Source: a phage
Sequence record: PZ229304.1
Strand: one strand, 5' to 3'
Length of the DNA: 64,000 nt
Part shown: positions 5,301 to 18,703 of the stretch, one piece after another
How positions within the stretch are numbered: position 1 is the stretch's first letter
Layout of the letters: each line of letters begins with the position of its first letter
Position numbers and translations under genes: made by a program
The notes under the pieces: generated by a model
Databases searched by the model: none
What the model saw: the letters and a program-made list of their open reading frames with translations, nothing else
Told to the model about the DNA's origin: nothing

Positions 5301-5722
5301 GTATTCTTTTTTCACAATGGAAGCGACACGTAAAGAATAGGCGTAAAGGTGGCGTAAAACCATCTAAAACCGACTGTAACCGCTTAAACAAGGTAGGAAT
5401 GATTAATCACCTTACCAGGATGAAAAAGCTGTTATAAAGCTATATAGGGCGTTTAAAGCACATAGGAAATAATTTGCTTTTTATCTTGCCTTTTATTCTG
5501 CTTTTGATTATTATTATGGAACGGGCGGCACCTGGGAACAGGGGAAGATAATCACCGGACGACCCCGCTATATATTGATAGCTAACATCTATCAAACAAC
5601 AAAACATCAAAGGAATAAACTATCAAATCTTTACAATCTCATCTATTGACCGGTAAATCATAGCAGTTTAATATTGTTTTTAGAGGGTAGAACATACCCA
5701 AAACGAAAACAGGAAAAAGAAA

Positions 5723-5959
5723 ATGAAAGAAGTCATGATCCTCAAAAAATCACCTATTTTACGTGGTGGCTTTATCGCTTACTCTGATGATCTGTTAATT
5801 GCAACGGTTGCAAAAATACTAAAATCAGAAGAGGATAGTAAAAACGGCGTTTATCGTATCTGTTTCACCCGTGGGAAATTGCAAGGCAAGATCGCCTATG
5901 CTTTTGATTTACAAGATGTAAATGATAAAATCTGCGCTGTTATTGATTATGCAAAATAA
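5723..5959 (+). CDS. hypothetical protein
   Basis: ORF track; RBS AGGAAAAAGAAA. Confidence 0.45.
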   Translation: MKEVMILKKSPILRGGFIAYSDDLLIATVAKILKSEEDSKNGVYRICFTRGKLQGKIAYAFDLQDVNDKICAVIDYAK

Positions 5960-6046
5960 TTAACTTTCTTATTGACACCGGATCACGCTTACATTATTAT
6001 TTATCACGTAGGGCAAATCATTTTAAACGGTAAACGAGGAATCACC

Positions 6047-6430
6047 ATGAGCAATATCATCAACCTGGCGGCTACTGTAAACGGTAAAGATTTTAACGGC
6101 GCTGTAGATCGTGATCCTATGTGGTGCTTATCCGTGTTTAAAGGCGATCTGGTTGAAGTTAGAACAACCGAAGGTTATAGCGACGATTATAAATGCGAGA
6201 TCCATTTACACAACTGGTACACGGGTAAAACTTATGCGCTGAATCATGCGTTTATCGGCAAGGTTGAATATAGAGAAATGATCGACGAAGAAACGGGGCA
6301 AGATTTTAGCGATTATGTTTATATCCGTTCCGAGACATTAGCAGAACGTTTGATCGAGAAAATGAAAGCAAAAAATAAAATTAATTTAGCTCATTGGATT
6401 GATATAACAAACGATCCAGCTTATAAGTAA
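6047..6430 (+). CDS. hypothetical protein
   Basis: ORF track, start moved to ATG 6047 after GAGGAATCACC; promoter TTGACA 5972-5977 upstream. Confidence 0.5.
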   Translation: MSNIINLAATVNGKDFNGAVDRDPMWCLSVFKGDLVEVRTTEGYSDDYKCEIHLHNWYTGKTYALNHAFIGKVEYREMIDEETGQDFSDYVYIRSETLAERLIEKMKAKNKINLAHWIDITNDPAYK

Positions 6431-6446
6431 ATGACACTTCACACCA

Positions 6447-6472
6447 GGGCGCACAAAGCGCCCTTTCTTTTT
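6447..6472 (+). terminator. rho-independent terminator GGGCGC-acaaa-GCGCCC plus T-run
   Basis: GC hairpin plus TTTCTTTTT. Confidence 0.65.
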
Positions 6473-6677
6473 ACCTAAATAAAGATGATAGCTTTTACCT
6501 ATCAAAAACGTTCACCGAAAAAAGTGAATAGATCGCGGTATCGAGCTAATCAAGGAGCAGATGAACAACCATACCATGAAGATCATAAGGCGCTTACAGC
6601 GTGTTTTAGACCGCTTATTTTTAATTTCTTCATGCAACTATTTGGCAAAAACAGCCTTTTTCTTGTCTTTCCTCTTA

Positions 6678-6690
6678 AATGATAATCATT
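6678..6690. promoter_or_regulatory. Fur-box-like palindrome AATGATAATCATT
   Basis: Exact match to the 13-bp core of GATAATGATAATCATTATC. Confidence 0.3.
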
Positions 6691-6733
6691 CTTATTTATA
6701 GCTGATTATTTATGCAATAAACTGCATAATGCA

Positions 6734-6748
6734 ATAATGATAATCATT
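6734..6748. promoter_or_regulatory. Fur-box-like palindrome ATAATGATAATCATT
   Basis: 15 of 16 contiguous positions match the Fur-box consensus. Confidence 0.3.
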
Positions 6749-7613
6749 CTTAACTTATGACCATCTAACCTATAAAATAATAAGTTATCTAACTAAATTA
6801 AAACTAATTATCTTACTTTTATTTATAACTTACTGTTACTATCTCATTGATAACCTTATATTAAACAACAATAACTAATATAAATCATTACTAAGCTAAA
6901 TATAATCTATCTAACCTTTAAAACTATAACTATAATCTATTGAATTATTGCACAAAGTAACTATTAAATCGTTAGTAACATTACTAAATAATTAATATCC
7001 TATCTATTTATGATCTAATCTTTACATTCCTATCTATTACCTAAATAATCATTTCATATAGTAATCATTTCATACAATAACTATAACAAGAAATATAATT
7101 CGCAAGCGTATCATTAGCAGCCTATGCCGGACACATAGGCGGCTAATAATAACGCAACTACACACCCCACATAATAACTATCACCGATAGTTATTATTTG
7201 TGCTTATGTAGCTTGCAACAACTGCAAGCGCAACAATATACATGGTATATTGTATCCCTTACATTGTTGCGGTGCGTTATTATTAGCTAATGTTTAGAAC
7301 ATTGGCTATAATATAAGCTAAATCATAAGCTATGCAATAATAAACATGGTGAATAATGACATTGATGATCATAATGCGCCACCTTCCAGGGGGCGCTATG
7401 TGAACACAAAGAAATCTTTCTTGTCAAGAAAATATTACTACTATTGCGCAAAATTATTTATATCTGAATAGATGATTTTTTATGCTATTGCCCCCTTGAT
7501 TATTACTATTTGTTGCCCTAACTATTGTCATTTGTTGAGCCTACTTTCTTAAAAGCGCAATAAATCAGAATTATCTTGATTTTTAGTCGGTTTTATAGTA
7601 CAGAAAGTATGCA

Positions 7614-7629
7614 AATGATAATCATTATC
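7614..7629. promoter_or_regulatory. Fur-box-like site AATGATAATCATTATC
   Basis: 16 contiguous positions identical to Fur-box consensus positions 4-19. Confidence 0.35.
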
Positions 7630-7795
7630 AGCTATCTTCCACGGGTGGCACTATTTCACGCCAGATCATTTCATTTGGCAAGGTGTATATAGATGTTTAG
7701 AAATGCCAAGCCATTGATTTACTTAGAATTTATCTGTTTTGTTGTGAGTAGTGCCTTTCTTGCTCAGAAAATAATCAAAAGTCTTATAAGTCATT

Positions 7796-7830
7796 GAATG
7801 ATAATGCAAATGATAATTATTCTCATTGAT
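7796..7830. repeat. degenerate tandem of GATAAT-type hexamers (tgaATGATAATgcaAATGATAATTATTCTCATTga)
   Basis: Repeated ATGATAAT units. Confidence 0.3.
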
Positions 7831-8272
7831 ATTTGAGGGGGACGGTCGGCAGAAATCGGGGGGCGCTGAAAATCGCGTTAAGCACCTCTCGCAAGCGAGC
7901 AGTATTTTGCGGCAAGTTATTGATATTATTGACTTTACGCTTAAGAAAAGGGGGCGTGTCGAAATAAATCGGGTATACCGGAAAATTTTTGTGGCATAGA
8001 TATTTATTTGTCTATATTATGTACAAAGGGGTGTGTTAAAAATAATAGGTATATATAGAATAATTGATAGGGAAATCCTATACTAAATCCTTCATTAATG
8101 ATGTTCCTATGTTGCTGTTCTTGTAATAGATGAAAAGACGCTATATGATGTGTGGCATGAAACGTAAACTTATAAGATGCAAATAATGCTTGCATTGAAT
8201 AGAAATGTCTATACACTGTGTTTCATAAGATATGCAATATCGCGCATAACAAACTACTAATGAGAGGTGTAA

Positions 8273-8731
8273 ATGAAAACTGTATCTTTGTATCTTGCTA
8301 ACACGGAGCGTGTACATAATCTTGTAAAAGAATGCGGTGTGAGTGTTCAATTTAACATAGGAAAGCCTTCCGTGGTGACAGGCAGTGAGATGTGTGTTAT
8401 TGATTTCCTCAATGAATATTTTCGTGGAAAACCTATTGCTCGTCACTTCATTCGAGAAATGCGAGATGTACAACAGGATTATGAATTCTACCCAGAAATT
8501 TGTGAACGCTATGAAACTATTCTTAGTTCTGTAGAAGATCCAGATACCAGTGAAACAGGTGTTTCCCACTTACTGTGGATGTTGAATGAAATTCAGGATG
8601 GGTGTAATGGTATGTCTGAAACCAAACGCCATCGTTGGCTAGGCTATATTCAGGGTGTTATGGTTATGAAAAACCTTATTACAGTGAGTGATGAACGTAA
8701 CGCTACACGCCCCGTCTTTAATGGAGCATAA
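8273..8731 (+). CDS. hypothetical protein
   Basis: ORF track; RBS GAGAGGTG. Confidence 0.5.
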   Translation: MKTVSLYLANTERVHNLVKECGVSVQFNIGKPSVVTGSEMCVIDFLNEYFRGKPIARHFIREMRDVQQDYEFYPEICERYETILSSVEDPDTSETGVSHLLWMLNEIQDGCNGMSETKRHRWLGYIQGVMVMKNLITVSDERNATRPVFNGA

Positions 8732-8732
8732 C

Positions 8733-8948
8733 ATGAAAAGCATTCAGGTGTGTATTGAAAATAATTGTGGTTATCTTGGGTTGACACATGTTGCTTTCCC
8801 TCTTATGTTAGATGCTGATATCGCTTACAGCGGAGTTGCTTATGTGTCATTCAAGACAATGAGCCAAGTACCTGGCTGGAAGTGGGAAGTAGTTGATGTT
8901 GTTGAAGGAGAAGATTATGTTTTCCTTCCACACGAATATACTGTTTAA
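8733..8948 (+). CDS. hypothetical protein
   Basis: ORF track, start moved to ATG 8733 after GGAGCA. Confidence 0.4.
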   Translation: MKSIQVCIENNCGYLGLTHVAFPLMLDADIAYSGVAYVSFKTMSQVPGWKWEVVDVVEGEDYVFLPHEYTV

Positions 8949-8963
8949 AGAGAGGAAAAGAAG

Positions 8964-9146
8964 ATGGATAAACAAACTACTGTGTACTTAGTAACAAAGA
9001 ATACCCTAGACTGGAACCAATGCAGCACTGTCCCTTACAAGATCTGTGCAACATTAGAACTAGCACAACGCGCAGAAGCAGAAGTGGATGCCATGCAAAT
9101 GCAACACAGCTATGGTGAGATCATTCCTCTTACTCTTGAACAATAA
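8964..9146 (+). CDS. hypothetical protein
   Basis: ORF track; RBS GAGAGGAAAAGAAG. Confidence 0.45.
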   Translation: MDKQTTVYLVTKNTLDWNQCSTVPYKICATLELAQRAEAEVDAMQMQHSYGEIIPLTLEQ

Positions 9147-9157
9147 GGATTTGTGTA

Positions 9158-9610
9158 ATGTTTGAAATTGGTAAAGTGTATCGTTTTAAAAACCCATCTT
9201 ATATCCGTAAGTTTGCTAACATGTCTGAGTGCAATAGCAGGATTGCTTCTTTTTTAGGTGATTCCTATTTTCGTGTATTAGATGTGGATGATTGGTATGG
9301 TGTCACTGCTTTGCAATCCTTAGCAGGAGAACAAGAAATTATCGCTCAAAATGAAGGAGACTTTCTTCAGTGTTACACGTTGCTTGCAAAAAGTGAGTTT
9401 GAGTATTTTGTAGAAGTAGTAGAGGAAGCACCAAAAAGTAAACACGAAGAGAAATACCTGCTTGTAGTGGATGGAGTTCCGATCATGGAAACCATCTCCC
9501 GTGAGGAAGTTGAAAAAGAGGCGAAACGTTACAAGCTGGATCGTACACAGGGTGTAGTTGAAATCTATTCTCTTGTTGGTGTTGCAGATATTAGTGTGAA
9601 CATCGTATAA
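9158..9610 (+). CDS. hypothetical protein
   Basis: ORF track; RBS AAGGA. Confidence 0.5.
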   Translation: MFEIGKVYRFKNPSYIRKFANMSECNSRIASFLGDSYFRVLDVDDWYGVTALQSLAGEQEIIAQNEGDFLQCYTLLAKSEFEYFVEVVEEAPKSKHEEKYLLVVDGVPIMETISREEVEKEAKRYKLDRTQGVVEIYSLVGVADISVNIV

Positions 9611-9826: not shown

Positions 9827-10122
9827 CTGTTACAGAAAAACTGCGTTGTATTGCAAAGCAAAGTGGAGAAGGTTTATGGTTTCCTATTGATGAAGTTATT
9901 CAGGACTGTTATGACCAGGCTAAGACTGGCAAATACTCCAAAGCATTTAAACCATCTGTTTTCGGTTTGGATGACTATCCGACAAATGAACAAGCAAGGA
10001 AACGCCAAGTTGATTTGATTGATCTTGCTATGGAAGCACTACGAGAGCGTGGGCTTAGTAAGGTGTATGCTTTAAACACCAAAGAGGGTTTTGTAGATTC
10101 AGTGATCGTAGATTGGCATTAA
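9823..10122 (+). CDS. hypothetical protein
   Basis: ORF track; start overlaps upstream stop (ATGA). Confidence 0.5.
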   Translation: MTVTEKLRCIAKQSGEGLWFPIDEVIQDCYDQAKTGKYSKAFKPSVFGLDDYPTNEQARKRQVDLIDLAMEALRERGLSKVYALNTKEGFVDSVIVDWH

Positions 10123-10135
10123 GGAGAATAGTAAA

Positions 10136-10486
10136 GTGTGTAACATGAAAAGCAGCCCTTATTTGCTACAATTTTATGAATGGTGGTTAGAACAAGAAGA
10201 TACAAACTTTAGCAAAAAGCATTATGGTCTTTGCACGTGTCTTGTAGACTTCTTATACAATATTGCTTGGATAAAAGATGTTGAGAATGTAGCAAACCTC
10301 CAGTCTTCTGTACGAGAGGAAATGAAGGAACAATTTAAGAAAGCAGGTTTGAACCATTTACACCCATTTAATACAGATTTCTCGCACTACTTTACGGAAA
10401 CAGAGCTAGGCATTGCACACCTTAATAAAGAACGTGTACAATGGGTGATTGATCGTATTCGTGATATGGAGGAATACAATGGTTAA
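10136..10486 (+). CDS. hypothetical protein
   Basis: ORF track; RBS GGAGAA. Confidence 0.5.
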   Translation: MCNMKSSPYLLQFYEWWLEQEDTNFSKKHYGLCTCLVDFLYNIAWIKDVENVANLQSSVREEMKEQFKKAGLNHLHPFNTDFSHYFTETELGIAHLNKERVQWVIDRIRDMEEYNG

Positions 10487-10697
10487 GTTTAAAACTTTCT
10501 GTGCAATCACTGTTTGTCTTATTCTTGCATACGTGTTATTCTCTGGTATCGTTCGTTTAGGTGAATATATGGCAAGAGAAGCTCGTGAAAGTGAAGCTAA
10601 AAAAGAACAGTGTATTGTGTTCAAGCATCAAAGAGATGCTGAAAAGTTTCTCGCACTTGATTGCAATCGTTATGTATCTTATCAAATGTATGAGTAA
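10479..10697 (+). CDS. hypothetical membrane-anchored protein
   Basis: Start moved to ATG 10479 after GGAGGAA; N-terminal hydrophobic helix. Confidence 0.4.
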   Translation: MVKFKTFCAITVCLILAYVLFSGIVRLGEYMAREARESEAKKEQCIVFKHQRDAEKFLALDCNRYVSYQMYE

Positions 10698-10706
10698 GGA
10701 GGATTT

Positions 10707-10931
10707 ATGGTAAAACGTCTGGAATGGGATGCGTGTACTGCTCACGCTTGTCACTGTGATATTGTGGAAGATCCTAATGGAGAAATGGTGTATTATGAGG
10801 ATTACGAAGCATTGCATAATGCTGTGATCGCTTTACTGGATGATATTAGCTCACGCTATCCAGGACAACAGTTTACGTGTCCACATATCCAACTATTAGC
10901 CGAACTTACGGAGTATCCAAGTGTTCCATAA
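10707..10931 (+). CDS. hypothetical protein
   Basis: ORF track; RBS AAGGAGGA. Confidence 0.5.
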   Translation: MVKRLEWDACTAHACHCDIVEDPNGEMVYYEDYEALHNAVIALLDDISSRYPGQQFTCPHIQLLAELTEYPSVP

Positions 10932-11109
10932 TATGGGTATCCCTGAACAACTGCTCTTTATTGTAGGATTAGTAGGCTTACTGGCGGCTGGCGCTAAAGC
11001 CGCTTCTCACACGCATCACATAATGTTAAGATTTCTATTCCTACTCCCTTCTATCCTCGTACTATTAGTCATACTGATCGATAACATTTTGCACAATTAA
11101 GGAGAGGTT

Positions 11110-11694
11110 ATGAGTAAAATTATACCAAGCAGTTATGAATTATTGCAGTTTTATGTGTATTATATAGACTGGGTTAATAGATCGAATGTTAAAGACAATG
11201 CGATGTTTAGTAAAAACATCTGTTTAACAGAAAGTATCTTCCGTTACTGGCACACAGGTAGAAAGTGTACACACAGTGAAGCTATGCGCATTGTAGGAGA
11301 ATATCTGGAGCAATTGCAAAAAGCAGAGCTACCTGTCCTTCACCCATTCAATGAATCTAAAGAAGAATTAGAACAAGAGTGTAGAGAAGGTAAGTGCCAT
11401 TTGAATGAAAAACGTATCGAATGGGTGAGGCAACGTTTAGCCGATGCAGGGAATCCTCCTAGTGACTCTGACTATACGTGGTATGATGTAGAGGGTTTAG
11501 TTCAAGGTTTTGAGGCTTGTGCTATAGATAATACCAACTTTGCCAAAGTTTTATGCGAGGCTTATGACTTGGCAGATAAAATCCGAAATCATGGATGGAA
11601 ACAAGAGCATAAAGAATCATATGAACGCCTTGACAAGATTTTCAAACAGATCTATTCTAACCACAAGAAGATGTTCCAAATGGAGGATGTGTAA
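11110..11694 (+). CDS. hypothetical protein
   Basis: ORF track; RBS AAGGAGAGG. Confidence 0.55.
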   Translation: MSKIIPSSYELLQFYVYYIDWVNRSNVKDNAMFSKNICLTESIFRYWHTGRKCTHSEAMRIVGEYLEQLQKAELPVLHPFNESKEELEQECREGKCHLNEKRIEWVRQRLADAGNPPSDSDYTWYDVEGLVQGFEACAIDNTNFAKVLCEAYDLADKIRNHGWKQEHKESYERLDKIFKQIYSNHKKMFQMEDV

Positions 11695-12377
11695 TGAAAG
11701 AGATTATGTTTGAAGGGCATCGTTACGAAGTTCCAGACAATGCAAATTTCATGGCTCGTGATATCACTGGAGATGTGTTCTGGTTTGAAGATGAACCTGT
11801 GTTTTCGAACAAACACTGGTTTTCACAACAATCTTCTTCGGAAAACATGACTTTTGGCTACGTAGAGCCTAAAGTGCGCTGCAAAGCAGCTTCTTCTTTG
11901 GTAAAAATTTCCCAAGATGATCAAGAAAATACTCCATATGTTGTTAGTGCACTACTGAAGTACATTGCAGAACTTGAGAAGAAAATTAAAGAAGCAGAAA
12001 CTAAGGTGAAAGCACGATCAGCCATCATTGAAGCTATGTCTGAACGTATCTTAGAGCTAGAAGATTTGTGTGGAGAGGCTTATCAAGTGGTCGGTGCGCT
12101 GGCTTGCGAAGCACAAATGTTTGAAACTTCAGAACAAGTTTCACATATGTTAGATAATTTAAGTGAATGTAAAATGATTCATGATGATGTATTGCCATTT
12201 TGTTGCAATGTTAACAAAGCAGAGCAAACAGAAGATTCAGAAACAGTTTATGTTCCGCTGATGTGTGTTCCAGATCATCTAAAAGGTGTATTCTCTTGTA
12301 AATGGTCACTGTTGAGCGTTACTAATTGTGGCGAAAACTATTCTGCCAACATTGAATTGCTAAAACACGTTAAATAA
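11694..12377 (+). CDS. hypothetical protein (central coiled-coil segment)
   Basis: ORF track; start overlaps upstream stop. Confidence 0.55.
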   Translation: MKEIMFEGHRYEVPDNANFMARDITGDVFWFEDEPVFSNKHWFSQQSSSENMTFGYVEPKVRCKAASSLVKISQDDQENTPYVVSALLKYIAELEKKIKEAETKVKARSAIIEAMSERILELEDLCGEAYQVVGALACEAQMFETSEQVSHMLDNLSECKMIHDDVLPFCCNVNKAEQTEDSETVYVPLMCVPDHLKGVFSCKWSLLSVTNCGENYSANIELLKHVK

Positions 12378-12387
12378 GGAGAGTAAT

Positions 12388-12792
12388 ATGTGGTCTGTTA
12401 AAATCAAATATAATGCGCAGTATTATGGTGGAAAGCCTTACGAAGTTGTTATTTGTGACTGTATCTCTAAAGAAGTTGCACAGCTTTGTGGCGCTGGGGT
12501 TAGTGAAGCTATGAACAAAATGCATAACTCGACTGTGCGTTACCTGGATCAAGATATTCCAGAAGATGTAAATGATTATGCTTACGAAGTTATTTTCAGT
12601 GAAGGTAAGAAGCTCTCTATTGAAGATGCACTTAAAGCACTACCTGCTATGTGCAGCCCAACACCAGAAGCAGTTAAAGAGATTTTACCAGAATCCAACC
12701 CCGATGAATATGCCTCTATGGTTGCTTCAGACATGTGGAATCTCTGTCGAGAAACTATGATTAAAAATCTTGTGGAAATGGCGCATGAGTAA
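12388..12792 (+). CDS. hypothetical protein
   Basis: ORF track; RBS AAGGAGAG. Confidence 0.5.
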   Translation: MWSVKIKYNAQYYGGKPYEVVICDCISKEVAQLCGAGVSEAMNKMHNSTVRYLDQDIPEDVNDYAYEVIFSEGKKLSIEDALKALPAMCSPTPEAVKEILPESNPDEYASMVASDMWNLCRETMIKNLVEMAHE

Positions 12793-13003
12793 AACACACT
12801 TTATACATCCGTTTGATCCAAAGAACAAGGCGGTTATACACCGCCGTTGGACTGAAACGCGCATTACAAAATGTCCTGTGCCAGCGGCACAGGAATATAA
12901 CAAAACATATAAAGCAGAATTTGTGGAGTATACCTTTGTAAATAACAAAGGGAAGGAGGTTTATGTTCCAGAATACTGCCTTTGGATAAAATGGGAGGAA
13001 TAA
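12785..13003 (+). CDS. hypothetical protein
   Basis: Start moved to ATG 12785 overlapping upstream stop. Confidence 0.4.
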   Translation: MSKTHFIHPFDPKNKAVIHRRWTETRITKCPVPAAQEYNKTYKAEFVEYTFVNNKGKEVYVPEYCLWIKWEE

Positions 13004-13170
13004 TGCAAACATTTTTTATCGACAAATTCAATAAAAGTATGAACACGTGGATGGCAACATTCACTATGCAATTTGCGTCATTTAAAGAAGCTCAAGAATG
13101 GTGCGATCAACACAAGGATTTTGATTTTTACTATCAAATTAATGCAAACCTTTCTCCAGAGGAGAAATAA
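13003..13170 (+). CDS. hypothetical protein
   Basis: Start moved to ATG 13003 after GGGAGGAA. Confidence 0.4.
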   Translation: MQTFFIDKFNKSMNTWMATFTMQFASFKEAQEWCDQHKDFDFYYQINANLSPEEK

Positions 13171-13171
13171 T

Positions 13172-13516
13172 ATGTTAGCTGATATTGAAATCCTTATGTA
13201 CCGACAAGGTATGATCAAAATGTGGCTAGATTCTTTTAGCAATATATACTGTACAGTACGATCAGCAGACGAGCGTAAAACGCTTATCTTATCTGCTATT
13301 GTTGATAAACAACGTTTCTTCAAAGAAGTTTTGCAAACAGGTTTCTCCGATGCAGGAGTAGAAATTGCAACTCTTAGTCTTGGGGTGCTGTCTTACTTGG
13401 AATCCGTTGTTTTATATGTCTTCTCTTTAGAAGAACACTTGCAATTTGAAGCATTAAAACTTATCTTAGATGCTGCAATTGACATAGAACAAAATCGAAT
13501 TGACTCTTTTGAATAA
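13172..13516 (+). CDS. hypothetical protein
   Basis: Start moved to ATG 13172 after GGAGAAATAA. Confidence 0.45.
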   Translation: MLADIEILMYRQGMIKMWLDSFSNIYCTVRSADERKTLILSAIVDKQRFFKEVLQTGFSDAGVEIATLSLGVLSYLESVVLYVFSLEEHLQFEALKLILDAAIDIEQNRIDSFE

Positions 13517-13532
13517 AAATAAGGAGAAAACT

Positions 13533-13991
13533 ATGCAAGAGGTTAAACATCATCCACATGGTCGTAGTTTTGTAGCTGTATGGCATGTTCCTGCTCGTAA
13601 TGAACTGTTTTGTGCATCTTTTCATTACAAAGATGGACAATATTTCACCTATGACGAGACGATGGATGATTTTATCCCAGAGTGCGATCATGGGTATACA
13701 CCAATGTTCTTTAAACGTATGAAAGCTCGTTTCTTCGTTACAGATGTTGATGGTGAACCTACTTGGCACATCGAAGAAGATTGGCAAGATTCTGTGGATA
13801 TTAAAGAAGCCCCAGAATGGGCTACATTACTGGTACACGTCAAAACCCCTACCCTTGACGTTATGGCGTGGGTTAATCATGATGATACCCATTACCAATA
13901 CATAAATGGTAGCACAGAGATTTCTGGTGAGATTATTGGTCGTTGGAAGCCTACGAATCAGGTTGCCATTGTCGGGTATAAGGCAGTATAA
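13533..13991 (+). CDS. hypothetical protein
   Basis: Start moved to ATG 13533 after AAGGAGAAAA. Confidence 0.5.
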   Translation: MQEVKHHPHGRSFVAVWHVPARNELFCASFHYKDGQYFTYDETMDDFIPECDHGYTPMFFKRMKARFFVTDVDGEPTWHIEEDWQDSVDIKEAPEWATLLVHVKTPTLDVMAWVNHDDTHYQYINGSTEISGEIIGRWKPTNQVAIVGYKAV

Positions 13992-13992
13992 T

Positions 13993-14187
13993 ATGAAAAA
14001 TAGTGTAGATTGGGATGATTTATCCGATTTTGAAAAATGGTTCTTAGTTAGTGGTTGTTATGCAGATGGGGATCTCGAAAGAGATCCTTCTGGAAACTAC
14101 ACTATGCCACTAACTCAAGGTTTTTATGAGTGCTGGTGCGCAGCACAAAACAACGTACTAAATAAGGAGACAACACAATGCAATTAA
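13993..14187 (+). CDS. hypothetical protein
   Basis: Start moved to ATG 13993. Confidence 0.4.
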   Translation: MKNSVDWDDLSDFEKWFLVSGCYADGDLERDPSGNYTMPLTQGFYECWCAAQNNVLNKETTQCN

Positions 14188-14417
14188 ACATCGGACAACC
14201 AATTTTTGATGCAGATACTGGTCAATATGCAGTGATTGTTGCTCGTATGAGCGGTGATGACCTTATTGTTTCAGAACTACTCGGATCAGATCCGCAACTC
14301 CGCGTAGTATGTGACCTATATCTTCGAGACGAAAGTGATCGCATTGCACTGAAAGAAGATGGTATGCTCTACTACACCTGGACTAGAGATCCTGGGGTAA
14401 CGGAGGTAGAGGTCTAA
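14178..14417 (+). CDS. hypothetical protein
   Basis: ORF track; RBS AAGGAGA. Confidence 0.45.
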   Translation: MQLNIGQPIFDADTGQYAVIVARMSGDDLIVSELLGSDPQLRVVCDLYLRDESDRIALKEDGMLYYTWTRDPGVTEVEV

Positions 14418-14711
14418 TGGTAAGGAATAGGGTTTACATAAAAGAAGACACCTTACTTACTGGCATCGTAAAGTACATGAACCTGTATCAAAGAAAGAAT
14501 GGCAATATCTGCCTTATGGGAAGGAGCGAAGAAAGTATCTGTTAGCTCACTTAAGGGTACATGGTTCTCTTCCTGTTAACAGTAAGTGGCAATTGCAAAC
14601 AGCTTATGACGAAGATATGAAATATTTGTTAAAGAGAGGCATTATTTGCCTTGTTAAGATAGGGCGATGGAAATCTCGTCAATCCTATATCGTACTTAAA
14701 CAGGAGAAACC

Positions 14712-14963
14712 ATGAATATCAAAGATGTTGTAGCATACGTAGCAGATGAAGTTAAAAACCATACAAGTTTACTGAAAGTAATGGTTGTGGTTAAAAATGG
14801 CATTGGACAAGTAAACGTACAACATGTCTTATCTGATACTGTATATAATGTGTTTGAATGTAAAGACACACCTCATGGAGTACGTGTGGTGTATATTGAT
14901 AACAATTTCAAAGAGTGTGTGAGACATACCTTAAAAAATGAGCTAAGGATCACAACCTTATGA
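14712..14963 (+). CDS. hypothetical protein
   Basis: ORF track; RBS CAGGAGAAA. Confidence 0.45.
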   Translation: MNIKDVVAYVADEVKNHTSLLKVMVVVKNGIGQVNVQHVLSDTVYNVFECKDTPHGVRVVYIDNNFKECVRHTLKNELRITTL

Positions 14964-15133
14964 GTTATTATGTTGTACCCTATGCTAATAAGTGGAGAGT
15001 AAGAGAAACTTGTTTTCTATTCTCCTGGTGGGCTACGTTCGGAGATGGTTGTGGAAATGATACAGGGAAGCCTGTAGAGTATGACACAAAAGAAGAATGT
15101 GAACAGTGGATAAAATTAACACAAAGATGTTGA
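14960..15133 (+). CDS. hypothetical Cys-rich small protein (57 aa)
   Basis: ATG overlapping upstream TGA; open to TGA 15131-15133. Confidence 0.3.
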   Translation: MSYYVVPYANKWRVRETCFLFSWWATFGDGCGNDTGKPVEYDTKEECEQWIKLTQRC

Positions 15134-15186
15134 CACGATCTTAACTTCTTGTTAGTATCAATGTGTACTAACGATAAGGAGGGTTT

Positions 15187-15411
15187 ATGAAGTCTGTAAA
15201 CAAGTTGCAACAATTTTTGTTATCAACAGCAATCTTTTTGCTTTTGTTAATTGGTATTCTGTATGGTGCATCTAACTTATACAATCTACACAACAATGTA
15301 GAACATAATATAGAGAAGTGCACCATTCTAAAACACAATAAACAAGCAGAAGATTTCTTAAAGAATAAGTGTTACAATTACATTGATTATGAGGAGACAA
15401 ACAATGATTAA
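15187..15411 (+). CDS. hypothetical membrane protein
   Basis: ORF track; RBS AAGGAGGG; hydrophobic N-terminus. Confidence 0.45.
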   Translation: MKSVNKLQQFLLSTAIFLLLLIGILYGASNLYNLHNNVEHNIEKCTILKHNKQAEDFLKNKCYNYIDYEETNND

Positions 15412-15646
15412 AGAATTAGGGATGCGAGTATACAGTGAGTGGACTCCAAGCAATGGCCCAGGAGTTGTTGCAGCTAAGTGTATCAATGGTCGTATTGAGT
15501 ACCTGGAAGGTTATGAAGATAATGAAGAGTTAGTAGATTATGCTAAATCTTTTATTGAAGATGATACAGACTTTATTGTATTATATGATACAGGAGAGTT
15601 AGAGTATGGATATGATGGAGATGGGGATATCTTTGAACTTCAATAA
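15404..15646 (+). CDS. hypothetical acidic protein
   Basis: Start moved to ATG 15404 overlapping upstream gene. Confidence 0.4.
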   Translation: MIKELGMRVYSEWTPSNGPGVVAAKCINGRIEYLEGYEDNEELVDYAKSFIEDDTDFIVLYDTGELEYGYDGDGDIFELQ

Positions 15647-15853
15647 GAGTAGTAAGTAAGATATAAAGAGTATATAGTTAGTTATAGAGTTAGTAACATT
15701 ACATATACTCTTTCCATGTATAACATGGAATATTCTCTACCTCGCTATCGCTCGGTATATAAGATTAGGGTAGCATGTTTTTTACGAAAAGTAAAACTGT
15801 TTGTACCGATTGATAGCAGGTTTTTAATAGATTTTATCTATGAGGAGTAGAAA

Positions 15854-16072
15854 GTGTACAAATTATATAAAGCAAAAGATAAGTTTACGGGTAATACATC
15901 TGGTTTCTATGTAACACCTCGTGGTGTTGCTGTGTTCGATTGGATCTCTGGTACTCCAGATCGTGAAATGATCTCTCTTGTAAAACTGTCGGAACAAGAG
16001 TACACTTACGGTGACATTACAACATTCTATTCTCGTGCAGAAAATCCAAAACTGATTGCGGAGTGGGAATAA
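15854..16072 (+). CDS. hypothetical protein (GTG start)
   Basis: ORF track; RBS GAGGAG upstream. Confidence 0.4.
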   Translation: MYKLYKAKDKFTGNTSGFYVTPRGVAVFDWISGTPDREMISLVKLSEQEYTYGDITTFYSRAENPKLIAEWE

Positions 16073-16335
16073 TGGTTACACGATATGGCTTAGAGGTGTA
16101 CAGCCAAGGTGCTGCTGGTCAATGTGATATTGTACCAGATCCAGAAGGGGATTATGTTCTTCTTGCTGATTACAATAAGCTAGAAGAAAGACTTCTGGCT
16201 GTGTATGCTAAAGAGAACAAAACAATCTGCCCTTATTGCAGTGGAATGGGTTGGGTAGTTGCAGATGTTGGACAAATGTATGAATGTGTGCCTTGTAAAA
16301 CCACAGGATTTATTGAAAAGGATACTAACAAATGA
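16072..16335 (+). CDS. hypothetical protein with CxxC pairs (possible zinc-binding)
   Basis: Start moved to ATG 16072; CPYCSG and CVPCK motifs. Confidence 0.4.
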   Translation: MVTRYGLEVYSQGAAGQCDIVPDPEGDYVLLADYNKLEERLLAVYAKENKTICPYCSGMGWVVADVGQMYECVPCKTTGFIEKDTNK

Positions 16336-16580
16336 CTGTAGCAGATAAAATGAGAGAACTGGCAGAAAACGCAGAACTTAACAAAGCAAAGGATAGTCTA
16401 CAAAATATCTACTCGTATATTGAGAGAGCAGCTAAAGATGGAGATAGAGAAGTTGCTATATACACGCTTTATCCAACTTTTGTAAAAGTTCACTTGGATG
16501 CTGAAGGTTTTTCAACTTTTATTGATACAGAAACATCTCATTACGACGAAAACTTTACTCGAATAGTTATTCGATGGTAA
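16332..16580 (+). CDS. hypothetical protein
   Basis: ORF track; overlapping start. Confidence 0.45.
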   Translation: MTVADKMRELAENAELNKAKDSLQNIYSYIERAAKDGDREVAIYTLYPTFVKVHLDAEGFSTFIDTETSHYDENFTRIVIRW

Positions 16581-16685
16581 ATTTCTGACATTTATGCGCC
16601 CTGGCTACCTGGGCGTAATAAATTCAGCTTATATTTGATCCGCGCCTTCGGCGCTTAGGCAAAGCCACGCCACACAGGAGGGTTT

Positions 16686-17096
16686 ATGTTCAAATGGTTA
16701 AAAGGGTTTCTAACATCTTTGGCAGAACCTAAGCAAGATGTTATTAAAAGCTCTATCACAGGAAAACCGCTTGTTATAGTTACAGGCGGCTTTGGTCATG
16801 GGTTTTCTCTTAAACAAACAGATATAGGTTTACAGGGATGTTTGATTAGTTTTAGAATCACTCAATTAGGAGATAATAGACAAACAATCTTAGACCTTTT
16901 CAATGGGGAATTTGATGACTATTTATCCAAGAGTGGTAAAGAACGTCTGATCGAGCATATAAAACACCGCTATGAGCATGGTGGTTACTACTTAGATACA
17001 AAACGTAATACACAAGGTGATCTTGACATAGTTCGTATAGCGTGGGATAATGAATTTAAAACTAAACTTGGTAAACTTCTGGAGGAGTTATGGTAA
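16686..17096 (+). CDS. hypothetical protein
   Basis: ORF track; RBS CAGGAGGG. Confidence 0.5.
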   Translation: MFKWLKGFLTSLAEPKQDVIKSSITGKPLVIVTGGFGHGFSLKQTDIGLQGCLISFRITQLGDNRQTILDLFNGEFDDYLSKSGKERLIEHIKHRYEHGGYYLDTKRNTQGDLDIVRIAWDNEFKTKLGKLLEELW

Positions 17097-17272
17097 ATAT
17101 TAAAACAGGTGATATTGTACGTCTTGCTAGTGAAGAAATGTTAATGACTGTAATGGTATCTACCTATGATACTTGCGAAGTGGTGTGGTTTGATGTTAAT
17201 GAACAACTACAGAAAGCTACATTTGATAAACGTATGCTTCGTAAAGTTGAAGAAGTGAAGGAGGAAGAATAA
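17090..17272 (+). CDS. hypothetical protein
   Basis: ORF track. Confidence 0.4.
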   Translation: MVNIKTGDIVRLASEEMLMTVMVSTYDTCEVVWFDVNEQLQKATFDKRMLRKVEEVKEEE

Positions 17273-17273
17273 T

Positions 17274-17486
17274 ATGACAATGTTGCTTCGTATGTTTGTG
17301 TTTCTTATGTTCTGGATTATCGTTGGTAACGGTATTGTGTTTTTGATTTTTCCTGAAGTAATGACAGGTAATGAAAATAAGGCAGTGCCTTACATTATGC
17401 TTATCGGTTACGGTATTGGTACACTTGGATTACTGTTTGCTGACTGGTTAGTCAATACTTTGTTCTCTAAGTACAGGAACAACTAA
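17274..17486 (+). CDS. hypothetical membrane protein (two predicted TM helices)
   Basis: ORF track; hydrophobic segments. Confidence 0.45.
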   Translation: MTMLLRMFVFLMFWIIVGNGIVFLIFPEVMTGNENKAVPYIMLIGYGIGTLGLLFADWLVNTLFSKYRNN

Positions 17487-17487
17487 T

Positions 17488-17760
17488 ATGTCGGAAAAAT
17501 TACCTAATGTTTTCTTTTGTTTTGTAGATTGTGTTACACAAGAAATTATAGTTGACGAAGAAGGTATGTTTACTTATTTTGCATCTGAAGAAGAGGCAAA
17601 ACTATCAGCTATGAAATGTATAAGCCAATTGTCAGTACCTGCTGTCAACAGGTTCGGTATTGCACAGGTGTATAAAACAGTAACAGAGTTTACACCAGAT
17701 CGAAAACTAACTTTTCTTAACGTTCACTTTGTTTGTAAGTTTAGTGAACTACGACATTAA
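17488..17760 (+). CDS. hypothetical protein
   Basis: ORF track. Confidence 0.4.
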   Translation: MSEKLPNVFFCFVDCVTQEIIVDEEGMFTYFASEEEAKLSAMKCISQLSVPAVNRFGIAQVYKTVTEFTPDRKLTFLNVHFVCKFSELRH

Positions 17761-17773
17761 ATCAGGAGTAAAA

Positions 17774-18373
17774 ATGAAAGAATATTGGAGTGGTGAGAAG
17801 GGCTTGCTAAAGCCAGGAATGCTTTTGCGAGTAAAGAACATGTTGATCACACAAGATTACATAATGCCTAATCCTGGAGCATTAGTAGAATTCCTTACTG
17901 CGCGAGATCAACCTGGGGTTGGTGAAATGTGGATTGTAACGTGGATATCTCTCGATAGTAAATTACGCGTTGCTCCTATTGACCCAAAACACTTGGAATC
18001 TCCTTACGCCAGCATTGATTCTCGGATCATAGATTTGGCTAGAGTTTATAAGGCTAGGACTGGTGTAGAATTAGATGTAGAAATTTTAAATCAATGTATT
18101 GACTTCTTACCTGAAAAAGTGCATAATGCACAACAAGAAGATAGCGGTTTAGAAGTTATTCTTCTGAATGATGGGATGTTCTCTGGTCTGGCATCTGTAG
18201 ATTTTCCAATAACATTAAGATTGTTACCTGGGGAATACGTACTGGATGACACTACTATTGCTATATCCTCTAAAATTTTAGAACTCATTCCAGGTGCAAG
18301 GTGTGTTGGTGATACATCTTCCTTGCTGTTTACTCTGAATGAAGAAGCCATTATAGTTAAAAAGGAGAAGTAA
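17774..18373 (+). CDS. hypothetical protein
   Basis: Start moved to ATG 17774 after CAGGAGTAAAA. Confidence 0.5.
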   Translation: MKEYWSGEKGLLKPGMLLRVKNMLITQDYIMPNPGALVEFLTARDQPGVGEMWIVTWISLDSKLRVAPIDPKHLESPYASIDSRIIDLARVYKARTGVELDVEILNQCIDFLPEKVHNAQQEDSGLEVILLNDGMFSGLASVDFPITLRLLPGEYVLDDTTIAISSKILELIPGARCVGDTSSLLFTLNEEAIIVKKEK

Positions 18374-18529
18374 ATGATGACGTTTATTGTTGGTGTTGTT
18401 GTTGGTTATTTTGGTCACAAGTACCAGGATGTTATCATCGCTAAAGTTGACGAAGTAATCGAAAAATTTAAACACTAATTTTTAAAAAGGCTGTACTGCT
18501 GTGCAGCCTATCTTTCAAAGGAGAGTAAA

Positions 18530-18703
18530 ATGTTCAAAGATACCAATTATAAATGTGTACATTGTGGTAAATCTTTTGGTGATCACAAAGCTAAAACATT
18601 CAATTGTCCACGAAAAGGGCGAGGTAGCTTTAAAGGTTTTAATCCATCCCACGTTTATTCTCCCAACTACGAGAAACCAGAAGAAGAAAAATTTGTAATC
18701 TGA
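18530..18703 (+). CDS. hypothetical small zinc-ribbon protein (57 aa; CxxC...C)
   Basis: ATG after AAGGAGAG RBS; CVHCGK motif. Confidence 0.4.
   Translation: MFKDTNYKCVHCGKSFGDHKAKTFNCPRKGRGSFKGFNPSHVYSPNYEKPEEEKFVI

Follow-up and report, generated by a model that had tools for sequence, protein, structure and literature searches.

What does a densely packed phage genome keep in almost 2 kb of DNA that encodes no protein? The question is raised by sequence record PZ229304.1, of which we analysed one stretch of 64,000 nt (the window; all positions are those of the window, + strand, unless stated otherwise). In it, a gap at 6431-8272 lies between two rightward blocks of genes. We consider it highly probable that this gap represents the joined physical ends, that is, the concatemer junction, of a linear phi92-like chromosome with short direct terminal repeats (DTRs), and that these ends work along the lines proposed below. 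The original prediction, made from the sequence of the window, had marked out the island and suggested a replication origin, a small-RNA cluster or a regulatory or decoy region; it missed the main identity of the gap, which is that of joined ends with a 343-bp DTR and cut sites. For Justusliebigvirus, a short-DTR terminus has already been published, and phage chromosome ends of this kind are well known. The cut motif, a covarying folded element, an array of Fur-box look-alikes and a set of host islands sharing sequence blocks with the ends are offered as new leads and not as established facts.

The gap is homologous to the chromosome ends of close relatives

The window is 95-96% identical to Justusliebigvirus genomes (phi92-like myophages of the Stephanstirmvirinae, ~146 kb). 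In the record of phage UAB_1 (OL656106), the DTRs annotated as 'left end' and 'right end' are identical 343-mers, and they align to window positions 7538-7880 with 98% identity and in a syntenic position, between the homologues of gp248 and gp001/002. Other deposited ends fall at the same place. The first base of the VEcB record corresponds to 7538 and the last base of the BME3 record (PP239276) to 7879, and in FKP3 (PP895363) the first 317 nt are the same as the last 317 nt, with boundaries 13 nt inside on each side. The DTRs of UAB_1 and BME3 are thus the same sequence as the one found here (95-98% identical), with boundaries that agree within 1 nt. Furthermore, the labels of the PATM genes that flank the gap name phi92 gp248, the last gene, and gp002 as their homologues, and so the phi92 record must have been opened inside the gap. 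The window holds a single copy of the DTR, and no second copy was found in it; we therefore regard the assembly as collapsed or permuted.

Genomes of the Stephanstirmvirinae are known to end in DTRs (PMC12695924). Short DTRs have been described for UAB_1 (PMC11350853), a 342-bp DTR was assigned to BME3 by PhageTerm (PMC12210895), and a terminal repeat length has been reported for FKP3 (PMC11663894). These last three papers give the length of the repeat only, without cut-site motifs, a hairpin element, Fur-like boxes or host islands.

The non-coding gap measures ~1.84 kb and is bounded by the stop codon of gene 5972-6430 and the start codon at 8273. The island free of credible open reading frames (ORFs) had been placed at 6683-8272, where the longest frames in the ORF listing are indeed 57 aa on the + strand and 70 aa on the - strand; the gap is therefore real, although its true start is 6431 rather than 6683. 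An ORF at 6485-6682 (65 aa) is unannotated in arall, inny, PATM and UAB_1 and gives weak partial tblastn matches to relatives. In other genera of the Stephanstirmvirinae, the gap is retained as ~1.5-2 kb that is unannotated or has tiny ORF calls only (Phapecoctavirus ZCKP1, nepoznato and phiWec186; Klebsiella phages KP2025, phi1_175008 and FKP3; Citrobacter phage Tr1), and an alignment of eight genomes reveals conserved islands within otherwise divergent gap sequence.

Might the gap nevertheless consist of protein-coding genes that have decayed or been overlooked? As many as 13 tiny 'hypothetical proteins' are annotated under the gap match in some GenBank records, and an ORF at 7826-7999 has tblastn matches in relatives with E-values down to 8e-12. 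However, the frame of this ORF is broken by stops or frameshifts in at least eight relatives (loci L029, L028, L024, L022, L011 and L009, and the close relatives L002 and L025), for which reason we rejected it as a gene after translation, and a second frame of the same stretch also gives matches, which places the similarity at the level of the DNA. Moreover, the sparingly annotated records (arall, inny, PATM, ZCKP1 and nepoznato) call no genes in the gap. When all gap ORFs were compared with 14 relatives by tblastn, no conserved open frame was found in the gap, the other ORFs being broken or matching only as short fragments of low identity. The core gap of the relatives thus contains no conserved gene of which the window could hold a frameshifted remnant, and the tiny 'hypothetical proteins' of some records are over-calls. 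Hidden or decayed genes are hardly a credible explanation; the region is a real non-coding stretch, rich in cis-acting sequence. In the comparison with relatives, the sole additions were one or two optional small genes inserted near 8175. The inserted stretches, of 350-860 bases, contain these genes (UAB1_gp001; PATM_179/180; inny_220/221) and are absent from the window, arall and alia; the slot is a variable first-gene position just inside the left end.

A putative cut motif and conserved blocks at the termini

Both DTR boundaries share the motif GTTR^AGC (where ^ marks the boundary) in direct orientation, within blocks that are conserved in 8/8 aligned genomes. The two strongest conserved blocks coincide with the deposited ends, TGTTG^AGC on the left and GAAAATCGCGTTA^AGCAC on the right. 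A longer version, GTTRAGCMC, was discarded as a stand-alone motif: it gave a single match, which is not significant, and the left boundary reads GTTGAGCCT.

Two sequences stand out (Table 1). Block B, which spans the right terminus, has a core that is nearly invariant in all eight aligned genomes. Block A, inside the DTR, is best retained in the Klebsiella-phage relatives (KP2025, phi1_175008 and FKP3) and weaker in Phapecoctavirus; it might be recognized by packaging or replication proteins. To the left of the left boundary, where the window has two tandem units, several relatives show extra tandem '...ATGTTGAGCAC' units, often with a G-rich run (for instance GGGGGCG) in front; the extra units are clearest in nepoznato and FKP3. 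The recurrence of G-rich motifs, which the original prediction had pointed out, is borne out by GGGGGCG at 7389, 7859 and 7950; all three copies in the 64 kb (0.67 expected) lie in the gap. Separately, the core of the right-terminus block is repeated ~1 kb upstream of the left terminus, as AGATCGCGGTA at 6530-6540 (AAATCGCGTTA in the Klebsiella-phage relatives).

Blocks A and B recur in chromosomal islands of E. coli

When the DTR was searched against complete E. coli genomes, chromosomal matches were obtained. With the 79 nt of Block B (7822-7900) as the query and a threshold of E <= 0.001, matches were present in 517 of 5426 complete E. coli genomes, always in chromosomal, unannotated DNA. 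We inspected two islands, one in E. coli DETEC-S565 (L041, NZ_CP116088) and one in E. coli KSC1031 (L042, NZ_CP019560). Positions 7855-7900 of Block B are identical at 44/46 positions in the DETEC-S565 island, Block A is common to the islands (39/50 and 31/38), and a 22-nt block at 6605-6626, upstream of the DTR, is matched at 21/22 positions in L041 and 20/22 in L042. In both islands the three blocks (window 6605, 7672 and 7855) occur in the order and orientation of the phage, with counterparts at 12378, 14001 and 14521 in L041. Such a recurrence would be predicted for cis signals borrowed by a satellite, and on this reading it independently marks blocks A and B as functional.

The islands encode an integrase and helix-turn-helix regulators, and contain 2-3 kb of non-coding DNA rich in iterons. 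They differ in cargo, which is either a capsid protein together with a Dit-like tail protein, or GmrSD, and no replicase, primase or terminase gene is annotated among the island genes listed. The capsid protein is 23-26% identical to capsid proteins mostly of Pseudomonas myoviruses. Ten island proteins compared with the window gave one marginal match only (E 0.004), and gene content therefore provides no link to a helper. The simplest reading of the sequences suggests that the islands are satellite-like elements that copy cis signals of the phage. In this they would resemble P4, PICIs, PLE and PICMI, which carry helper packaging sites: here, 8-12 kb integrase islands carry three terminal blocks of a phage. 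The islands have no annotated primase or terminase and differ from P4-like elements, PICIs and cfPICIs in gene content. We found nothing relevant in the literature on satellites in this phage group, nor a description of this island family, and we know of no E. coli satellite that uses a virulent, DTR-packaging phage as its helper.

A covarying folded element lies left of the left end

The palindromes that had been noticed in the island are all present: GCCTATG/CATAGGC at 7120-7140 (1 nt from where it had been placed), ATAACTATC-ACC-GATAGTTAT at 7174-7194, for the palindrome reported near 7180, and GCTTGCA-ACAAC-TGCAAGC at 7211-7229. A distant inverted repeat described as 12 bp long was also found, with a true length of 15 bp (7142-7156 with 7273-7287). 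Together they make up an element of ~170 nt with five helices, which consists of a hairpin, H1, and a three-hairpin domain in which the 15-bp outer stem closes 116 nt. Against shuffled sequences, the fold of 7105-7300 has a z-score of -7.0 on the + strand and -8.3 on the - strand.

To assess covariation, we assembled 22 distinct homologues from phage records, IMG/VR and metagenomes; the homologue pattern scans contributed five viral and ~10 genuine metagenomic loci, and the other metagenomic matches were chance. The structure counted (RNAalifold and pair counting) comprised four helices, namely H1, the 15-bp stem and two inner hairpins. In the hairpin at 7230-7270, complementary changes can be seen by eye; because it was misaligned, its pairs were not counted. 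The 38 pairs counted were paired in 97.6% of cases across the 22 sequences, versus 23-46% in slid controls. Changes on both sides were seen in 13 of the 38 pairs, and none of 500 shuffles reached the observed values. In H1, all seven pairs are 100% Watson-Crick in the 22 sequences, with compensatory double changes in three pairs (for example, GCCTAT/ATAGGC versus CGCTAC/GTAGCG); the outer stem is 100% paired, with four covarying pairs (AACGCA/TGCGTT versus AAGCCA/TGGCTT versus ACCGCA/TGCGGT). Given the large z-scores and the covariation, this is therefore a selected nucleic-acid fold and not a product of chance. The covariance model of the element matches Stephanstirmvirinae loci only, and found no match in the E. 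coli islands; a candidate homologue in the Vequintavirinae phage KB57 (16 bits, E 0.14) was not accepted.

Is the fold used as RNA or as DNA? According to the first of these possibilities, 7120-7287 encodes a structured non-coding RNA, regulatory or packaging-associated, of which the palindromes are the helices. The compensatory changes, including those in the 15-bp stem, and the low folding energies are what such an RNA would show, and, with the - strand transcribed, the few C-A mismatches of the + strand would appear as G-U pairs. As a guide to strand, however, the wobble counts are ambiguous (three G-U versus ~8 A-C/C-A cells, all in one hairpin). Furthermore, 7120-7287 has no match to an Rfam family and no convincing promoter or terminator around it on either strand; H1 and the outer stem switch between Watson-Crick pairs only, with zero G-U intermediates in 22 pairs x 22 sequences, which fits a structure that pairs on both DNA strands; and the stem at 7211-7229 and the single-stranded CAACTACAC are invariant in the alignment, which suggests that a protein recognizes their sequence. 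On these grounds we think an RNA unlikely, and favour a DNA-level structure that would be recognized by proteins. Of the small-RNA cluster first suggested, one structured element survives, with no sign of further members: an Rfam 15 scan of 5500-9500 (E <= 1) returned only chance matches to snoR14 and mir-101 (E 0.7-1), none of them on the element, ARAGORN found no tRNA or tmRNA in the gap, and promoter-like sites are at the level of shuffled sequence. In the UAB_1 record, a 40-aa hypothetical protein, gp257 (L004 3532-3654, - strand; window ~7180-7302), is annotated wholly within the covarying hairpin domain; this is probably a spurious call.

Fur-box look-alikes in the gap and in the repeat

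One 17-nt repeat of the gap, AATGATAATCATTCTTA, corresponds to the core of Fur boxes in E. coli. With two or fewer mismatches allowed, TGATAATNATTATCA matches four times in the 64-kb window, compared with 0.97 expected, and each time inside the gap; the best 19-mer matches to the Fur consensus (17, 16 and 15 of 19) are also concentrated there. There are five Fur-like clusters, at 6675, 6733, 7352, 7611 and 7800, of which the last two are inside the DTR; a perfect 7-1-7 motif, TGATAATCATTATCA, lies at 7616-7630. Boxes occur at matching positions in the Phapecoctavirus, Klebsiella and Citrobacter relatives, with one at or near the 7611-7629 position in all aligned genera. The array at 7800-7830 is recognizable in most relatives but not in Tr1, and the 58-bp spacing of the twin boxes recurs in KP2025, phi1_175008 and KB57. 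The Vequintavirinae were reached via gene 5972-6430, a poor anchor that is widespread in T4-like phages, and KB57 was the only useful match.

In terms of known sites, the look-alikes resemble E. coli Fur boxes (19-bp consensus GATAATGATAATCATTATC; 7-1-7 and hexamer models) with matches of 17/19, 16/19 and 15/19 and one perfect 7-1-7, and they form arrays of adjacent hexamers like those of strongly bound E. coli Fur promoters. Unlike E. coli Fur boxes, these predicted sites are situated in the terminal repeat and right-end leader of a virulent phage and not at an iron-uptake promoter. Two side observations concern the same sequences. First, a palindrome, TTATGCA-N6-TGCATAA (6710-6729), lies exactly between the twin boxes and could serve as a second operator; most of the eight genomes have recognizable half-sites. 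Second, KB57 (L036, NC_028659, ~114400-116400) has a 2-kb gene-poor region between convergent gene blocks with at least six Fur-like boxes; one pair of these, 58 bp apart, lies between the arms of a perfect 19-bp inverted repeat (CGACACAATAACACGGGAG with its complement).

The regulatory or decoy function raised by the original prediction gains unexpected support from this array, which had not been recognized. Could the main function of the gap be that of a Fur decoy or an iron switch? As a decoy, the boxes, of which each genome has at least five and the virion carries two in duplicate because of the DTR, would titrate Fur during replication and derepress iron uptake; as a switch, Fur would repress end-proximal promoters when iron is plentiful. 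Multicopy Fur boxes are known to titrate Fur, which is the basis of the FURTA assay and counts for the decoy version. In addition to the perfect 7-1-7 motif and the 17/19 match to the classical consensus, all strong matches in the 64 kb fall within some 1.6 kb of gap sequence, and the boxes are conserved in position, while their flanks diverge, and are present even in KB57. On the other hand, Fur binding is predicted from a motif that is AT-rich and palindromic, so that a dimeric phage regulator could be the true ligand. We found no report of Fur sites in this phage group in the literature, promoter-like sites overlapping the boxes are weak only, their overall count matching the shuffle expectation, and the Fur reading accounts for just ~120 nt of 1.8 kb. 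As the main function of the gap, iron sensing therefore strikes us as possible but rather improbable. A broader proposal, that the terminal region is a control hub at which Fur is recruited to the end arrays, so that early transcription or Fur titration responds to iron, and from which island satellites, present in ~10% of complete E. coli genomes, have copied packaging or replication blocks, is more doubtful still.

The AT-rich spacer and the question of an origin

The AT richness ascribed to the whole island holds for 6601-7200 (GC 22-25%), with 3-8% G per 100 nt on the + strand, and not for the remaining gap (31-38% GC, as in the genome). Within this part, the tandem TAATCATTTCATA that had been picked out is present at 7046-7077, and is annotated as a repeat_region in arall and inny. 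At the place of 6760-7100 (~350 nt, 3-8% G), the Phapecoctavirus relatives have an A/C-rich, T- and G-poor stretch. The G-poor spacer might, as a matter of speculation, be an unwinding element or a Rho-loading site.

An origin of replication would be compatible with a terminus at the same locus. In this case 6760-7100 would be an unwinding element at which repeated words and hairpins load a T7-like helicase-primase. The base composition over ~350 nt would suit such a role, AATCATT, TAATCATT and similar words are over-represented, and the structured element at 7120-7287 adjoins the spacer. Similarly, the islands with the three blocks are iteron-rich and have no annotated replicase among the genes listed, which would fit the borrowing of a helper origin. 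However, no DnaA boxes or clear iterons were found in the gap, the spacer is poorly conserved across genera in both sequence and length (with a ~130-nt indel), and the dip in skew is local and is caused by the G-poor strand. We regard an origin at this place as doubtful.

As for transcription signals, the only convincing terminator in the gap is that at 6446, the stem of which is found in seven of the eight aligned genomes; the stem of Tr1 is different and FKP3 is not covered.

Table 1. Features in and around the gap, and the two E. coli islands. Island positions are those of L041 and L042; all others are those of the window.
Feature	Position	Strand	Remarks
Untranslated right end	6431-7537
Intrinsic terminator	6446-6464	+	GGGCGC-loop-GCGCCC then T run; closes the upstream (genome right-end) gene block
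Conserved non-coding leader	6470-6674	+	From the eight-genome alignment; includes the 22-nt block 6605-6626 common with E. coli islands
Twin Fur-box-like palindromes (AATGATAATCATTCTTA)	6675-6693, 6733-6751		58 bp apart
AT-rich spacer	6760-7100	+	GC 22-25%, G-depleted; repeated AATCATT words, tandem TAATCATTTCATA
Hairpin H1	7120-7140		7-bp stem, conserved loop CCGGACA
Three-hairpin domain	7142-7287		15-bp long-range stem 7142-7156/7273-7287; hairpins 7168-7200, 7211-7229, 7230-7270
First copy of 37-nt repeat	7352-7395	+	Weak Fur-like box (14/19) then GGGGGCG
Two tandem 22-nt units	7494-7537	+	Each ends in ATTTGTTG; second unit abuts left terminus
Left end of virion DNA	7538		TGTTG^AGCC
Direct terminal repeat, single collapsed copy	7538-7880	+	From UAB_1 DTRs, VEcB start, BME3 end
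Strongest Fur-box look-alike	7611-7629		17/19 match to GATAATGATAATCATTATC
Block A	7672-7721	+	Inside DTR; inverted repeat TTGGCA-N22-TGCCAA then ATTGAT
Overlapping Fur-like hexamer array	7800-7830		GATAAT GCAAAT GATAAT TATTCT CATTGA; best match 15/19
Block B (GAAAATCGCGTTAAGCAC)	7822-7900	+	Spans right terminus; best-conserved stretch of the gap
Right end of virion DNA	7879/7880		CGCGTTA^AGCAC
Post-repeat untranslated leader	7881-8272	+	Before first left-end gene (8273); third GGGGGCG (7950), conserved AT-rich promoter-like blocks
Island L041	3438-15744 (~12 kb)		At tRNA-Thr (thrW)/proA; integrase
Island L042	~9900-18600 (~8.5 kb)		Between thiM and rcnR; integrase

How the joined ends may work

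Returning to the gap as a pair of joined chromosome ends, we propose the following sequence of events. Virion DNA would start at 7538 and end at 7879/7880 after ~146 kb, and would thus carry 7538-7880 at each end. Following the model of T7-type phages, replication would yield concatemers with one copy of the repeat per junction; the terminase would recognize the blocks at 7672-7721 and 7822-7900 and cut the concatemers at the two GTTR^AGC copies, and the intervening 343 bp would be duplicated by DNA synthesis. The folded element, ~250-400 bp left of the left cut, may assist end processing or priming. If Fur occupies the boxes, it might repress transcription near the ends under iron-rich conditions, or be titrated by the growing number of genomes. 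Early promoters may be located in 7881-8272, and possibly also inside the repeat.

The closest parallel is with T7, in which the DTR is 160 bp long and a palindrome or hairpin end ~190 bp left of the left-end cut has been proposed as a concatemer-processing intermediate. As in T7, a short exact repeat would occupy both ends and occur once per concatemer junction; it is flanked by repeat-rich DNA without genes, with a palindromic region a few hundred bp left of the mature left end, and early genes lie just inside that end. The comparison has clear limits: this is a 146-kb myovirus and not a 40-kb podovirus, its repeat is twice as long, a covarying multi-helix domain takes the place of one imperfect palindrome, and the Fur-like boxes have no counterpart in T7, so that the T7 mechanism is carried over by analogy. 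To our knowledge, the phi92-like group also differs from T7 in having no phage RNA polymerase. A T7-like replisome is nevertheless a shared trait of this phage group, since relatives of rV5 encode a gp4-type helicase-primase and a PolA-type polymerase (PMC3606486).

Other systems offer more partial likenesses. In lambda, which has 12-nt cohesive ends, the cos region consists of the cosN cut site and of cosB, with terminase R sites and an IHF site. Here too a cut site is flanked by repeated, putative protein-binding sites, possibly including one for a host DNA-binding protein. However, there are two cut positions 343 bp apart, which give a repeat, and the host factor would be Fur and not IHF. 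The injection-stop region of T5 is likewise non-coding, has direct and inverted repeats and palindromes, and is near the end of a large virulent coliphage chromosome, but the terminal repeat of T5 is ~10 kb long and contains genes, and we know of no two-step injection in phi92-like phages. Finally, phi29 pRNA is similar by analogy only, in that a ~170-nt multi-helix element lies next to a chromosome end with a potential link to packaging; there is no sequence or Rfam match, and the packaging systems are unrelated.

Several observations weigh against this account or parts of it. The termini of this particular phage are deduced from relatives that are 95-98% identical to it, and the FKP3 repeat, shorter by 13 bp per side, implies that exact cut positions may differ or be method-dependent. 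By itself, GTTRAGC is too short for its occurrence to be significant, and two motifs in direct orientation do not explain staggered nicks on opposite strands. The islands carry neither the Fur-like boxes nor the hairpin element, and hence neither would be needed for the role of the shared blocks; the absence of the boxes from the islands also argues that these are not terminase-binding sites. The islands could, moreover, hold the blocks as helper-responsive promoters and not as packaging sites, and a phage protein could bind the palindromes in place of Fur. Lastly, a sigma-70 scan of the gap found 17 sites compared with 16.8 in shuffled sequence, and without enrichment of promoter-like sites the claims concerning transcription are weak.

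Other observations

Two observations concern the phage as a whole. The window contains a cluster of 16 tRNA genes at 59058-62200 on the + strand, including three tRNA-Met genes, which matches the set reported for BME3. In addition, four records labelled 'Campylobacter phage' (MG065639, MG065645, MG065656 and MG065689; host Campylobacter jejuni) are 96% identical to this E. coli phage over the gap, and their host labels look doubtful.

Implications

For annotation, the consequence is immediate: the label of the gap should read 'chromosome ends', and the genome should be opened at 7538 and not be drawn as a circle with an unexplained gap. The cut-site motif, like the conserved blocks, provides candidate packaging signals that can be tested, and the covarying element is a clean target for mutagenesis. 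The near-perfect Fur boxes in the DTR of a virulent phage would, if bound, link infection to the iron status of the host. Phages of the phi92-like or phAPEC8-like type are used in therapy cocktails (PMC11350853) and are found in the BASEL collection. The blocks in the islands point to possible satellites of phi92-like phages, and such satellites would affect host range and the outcome of therapy.

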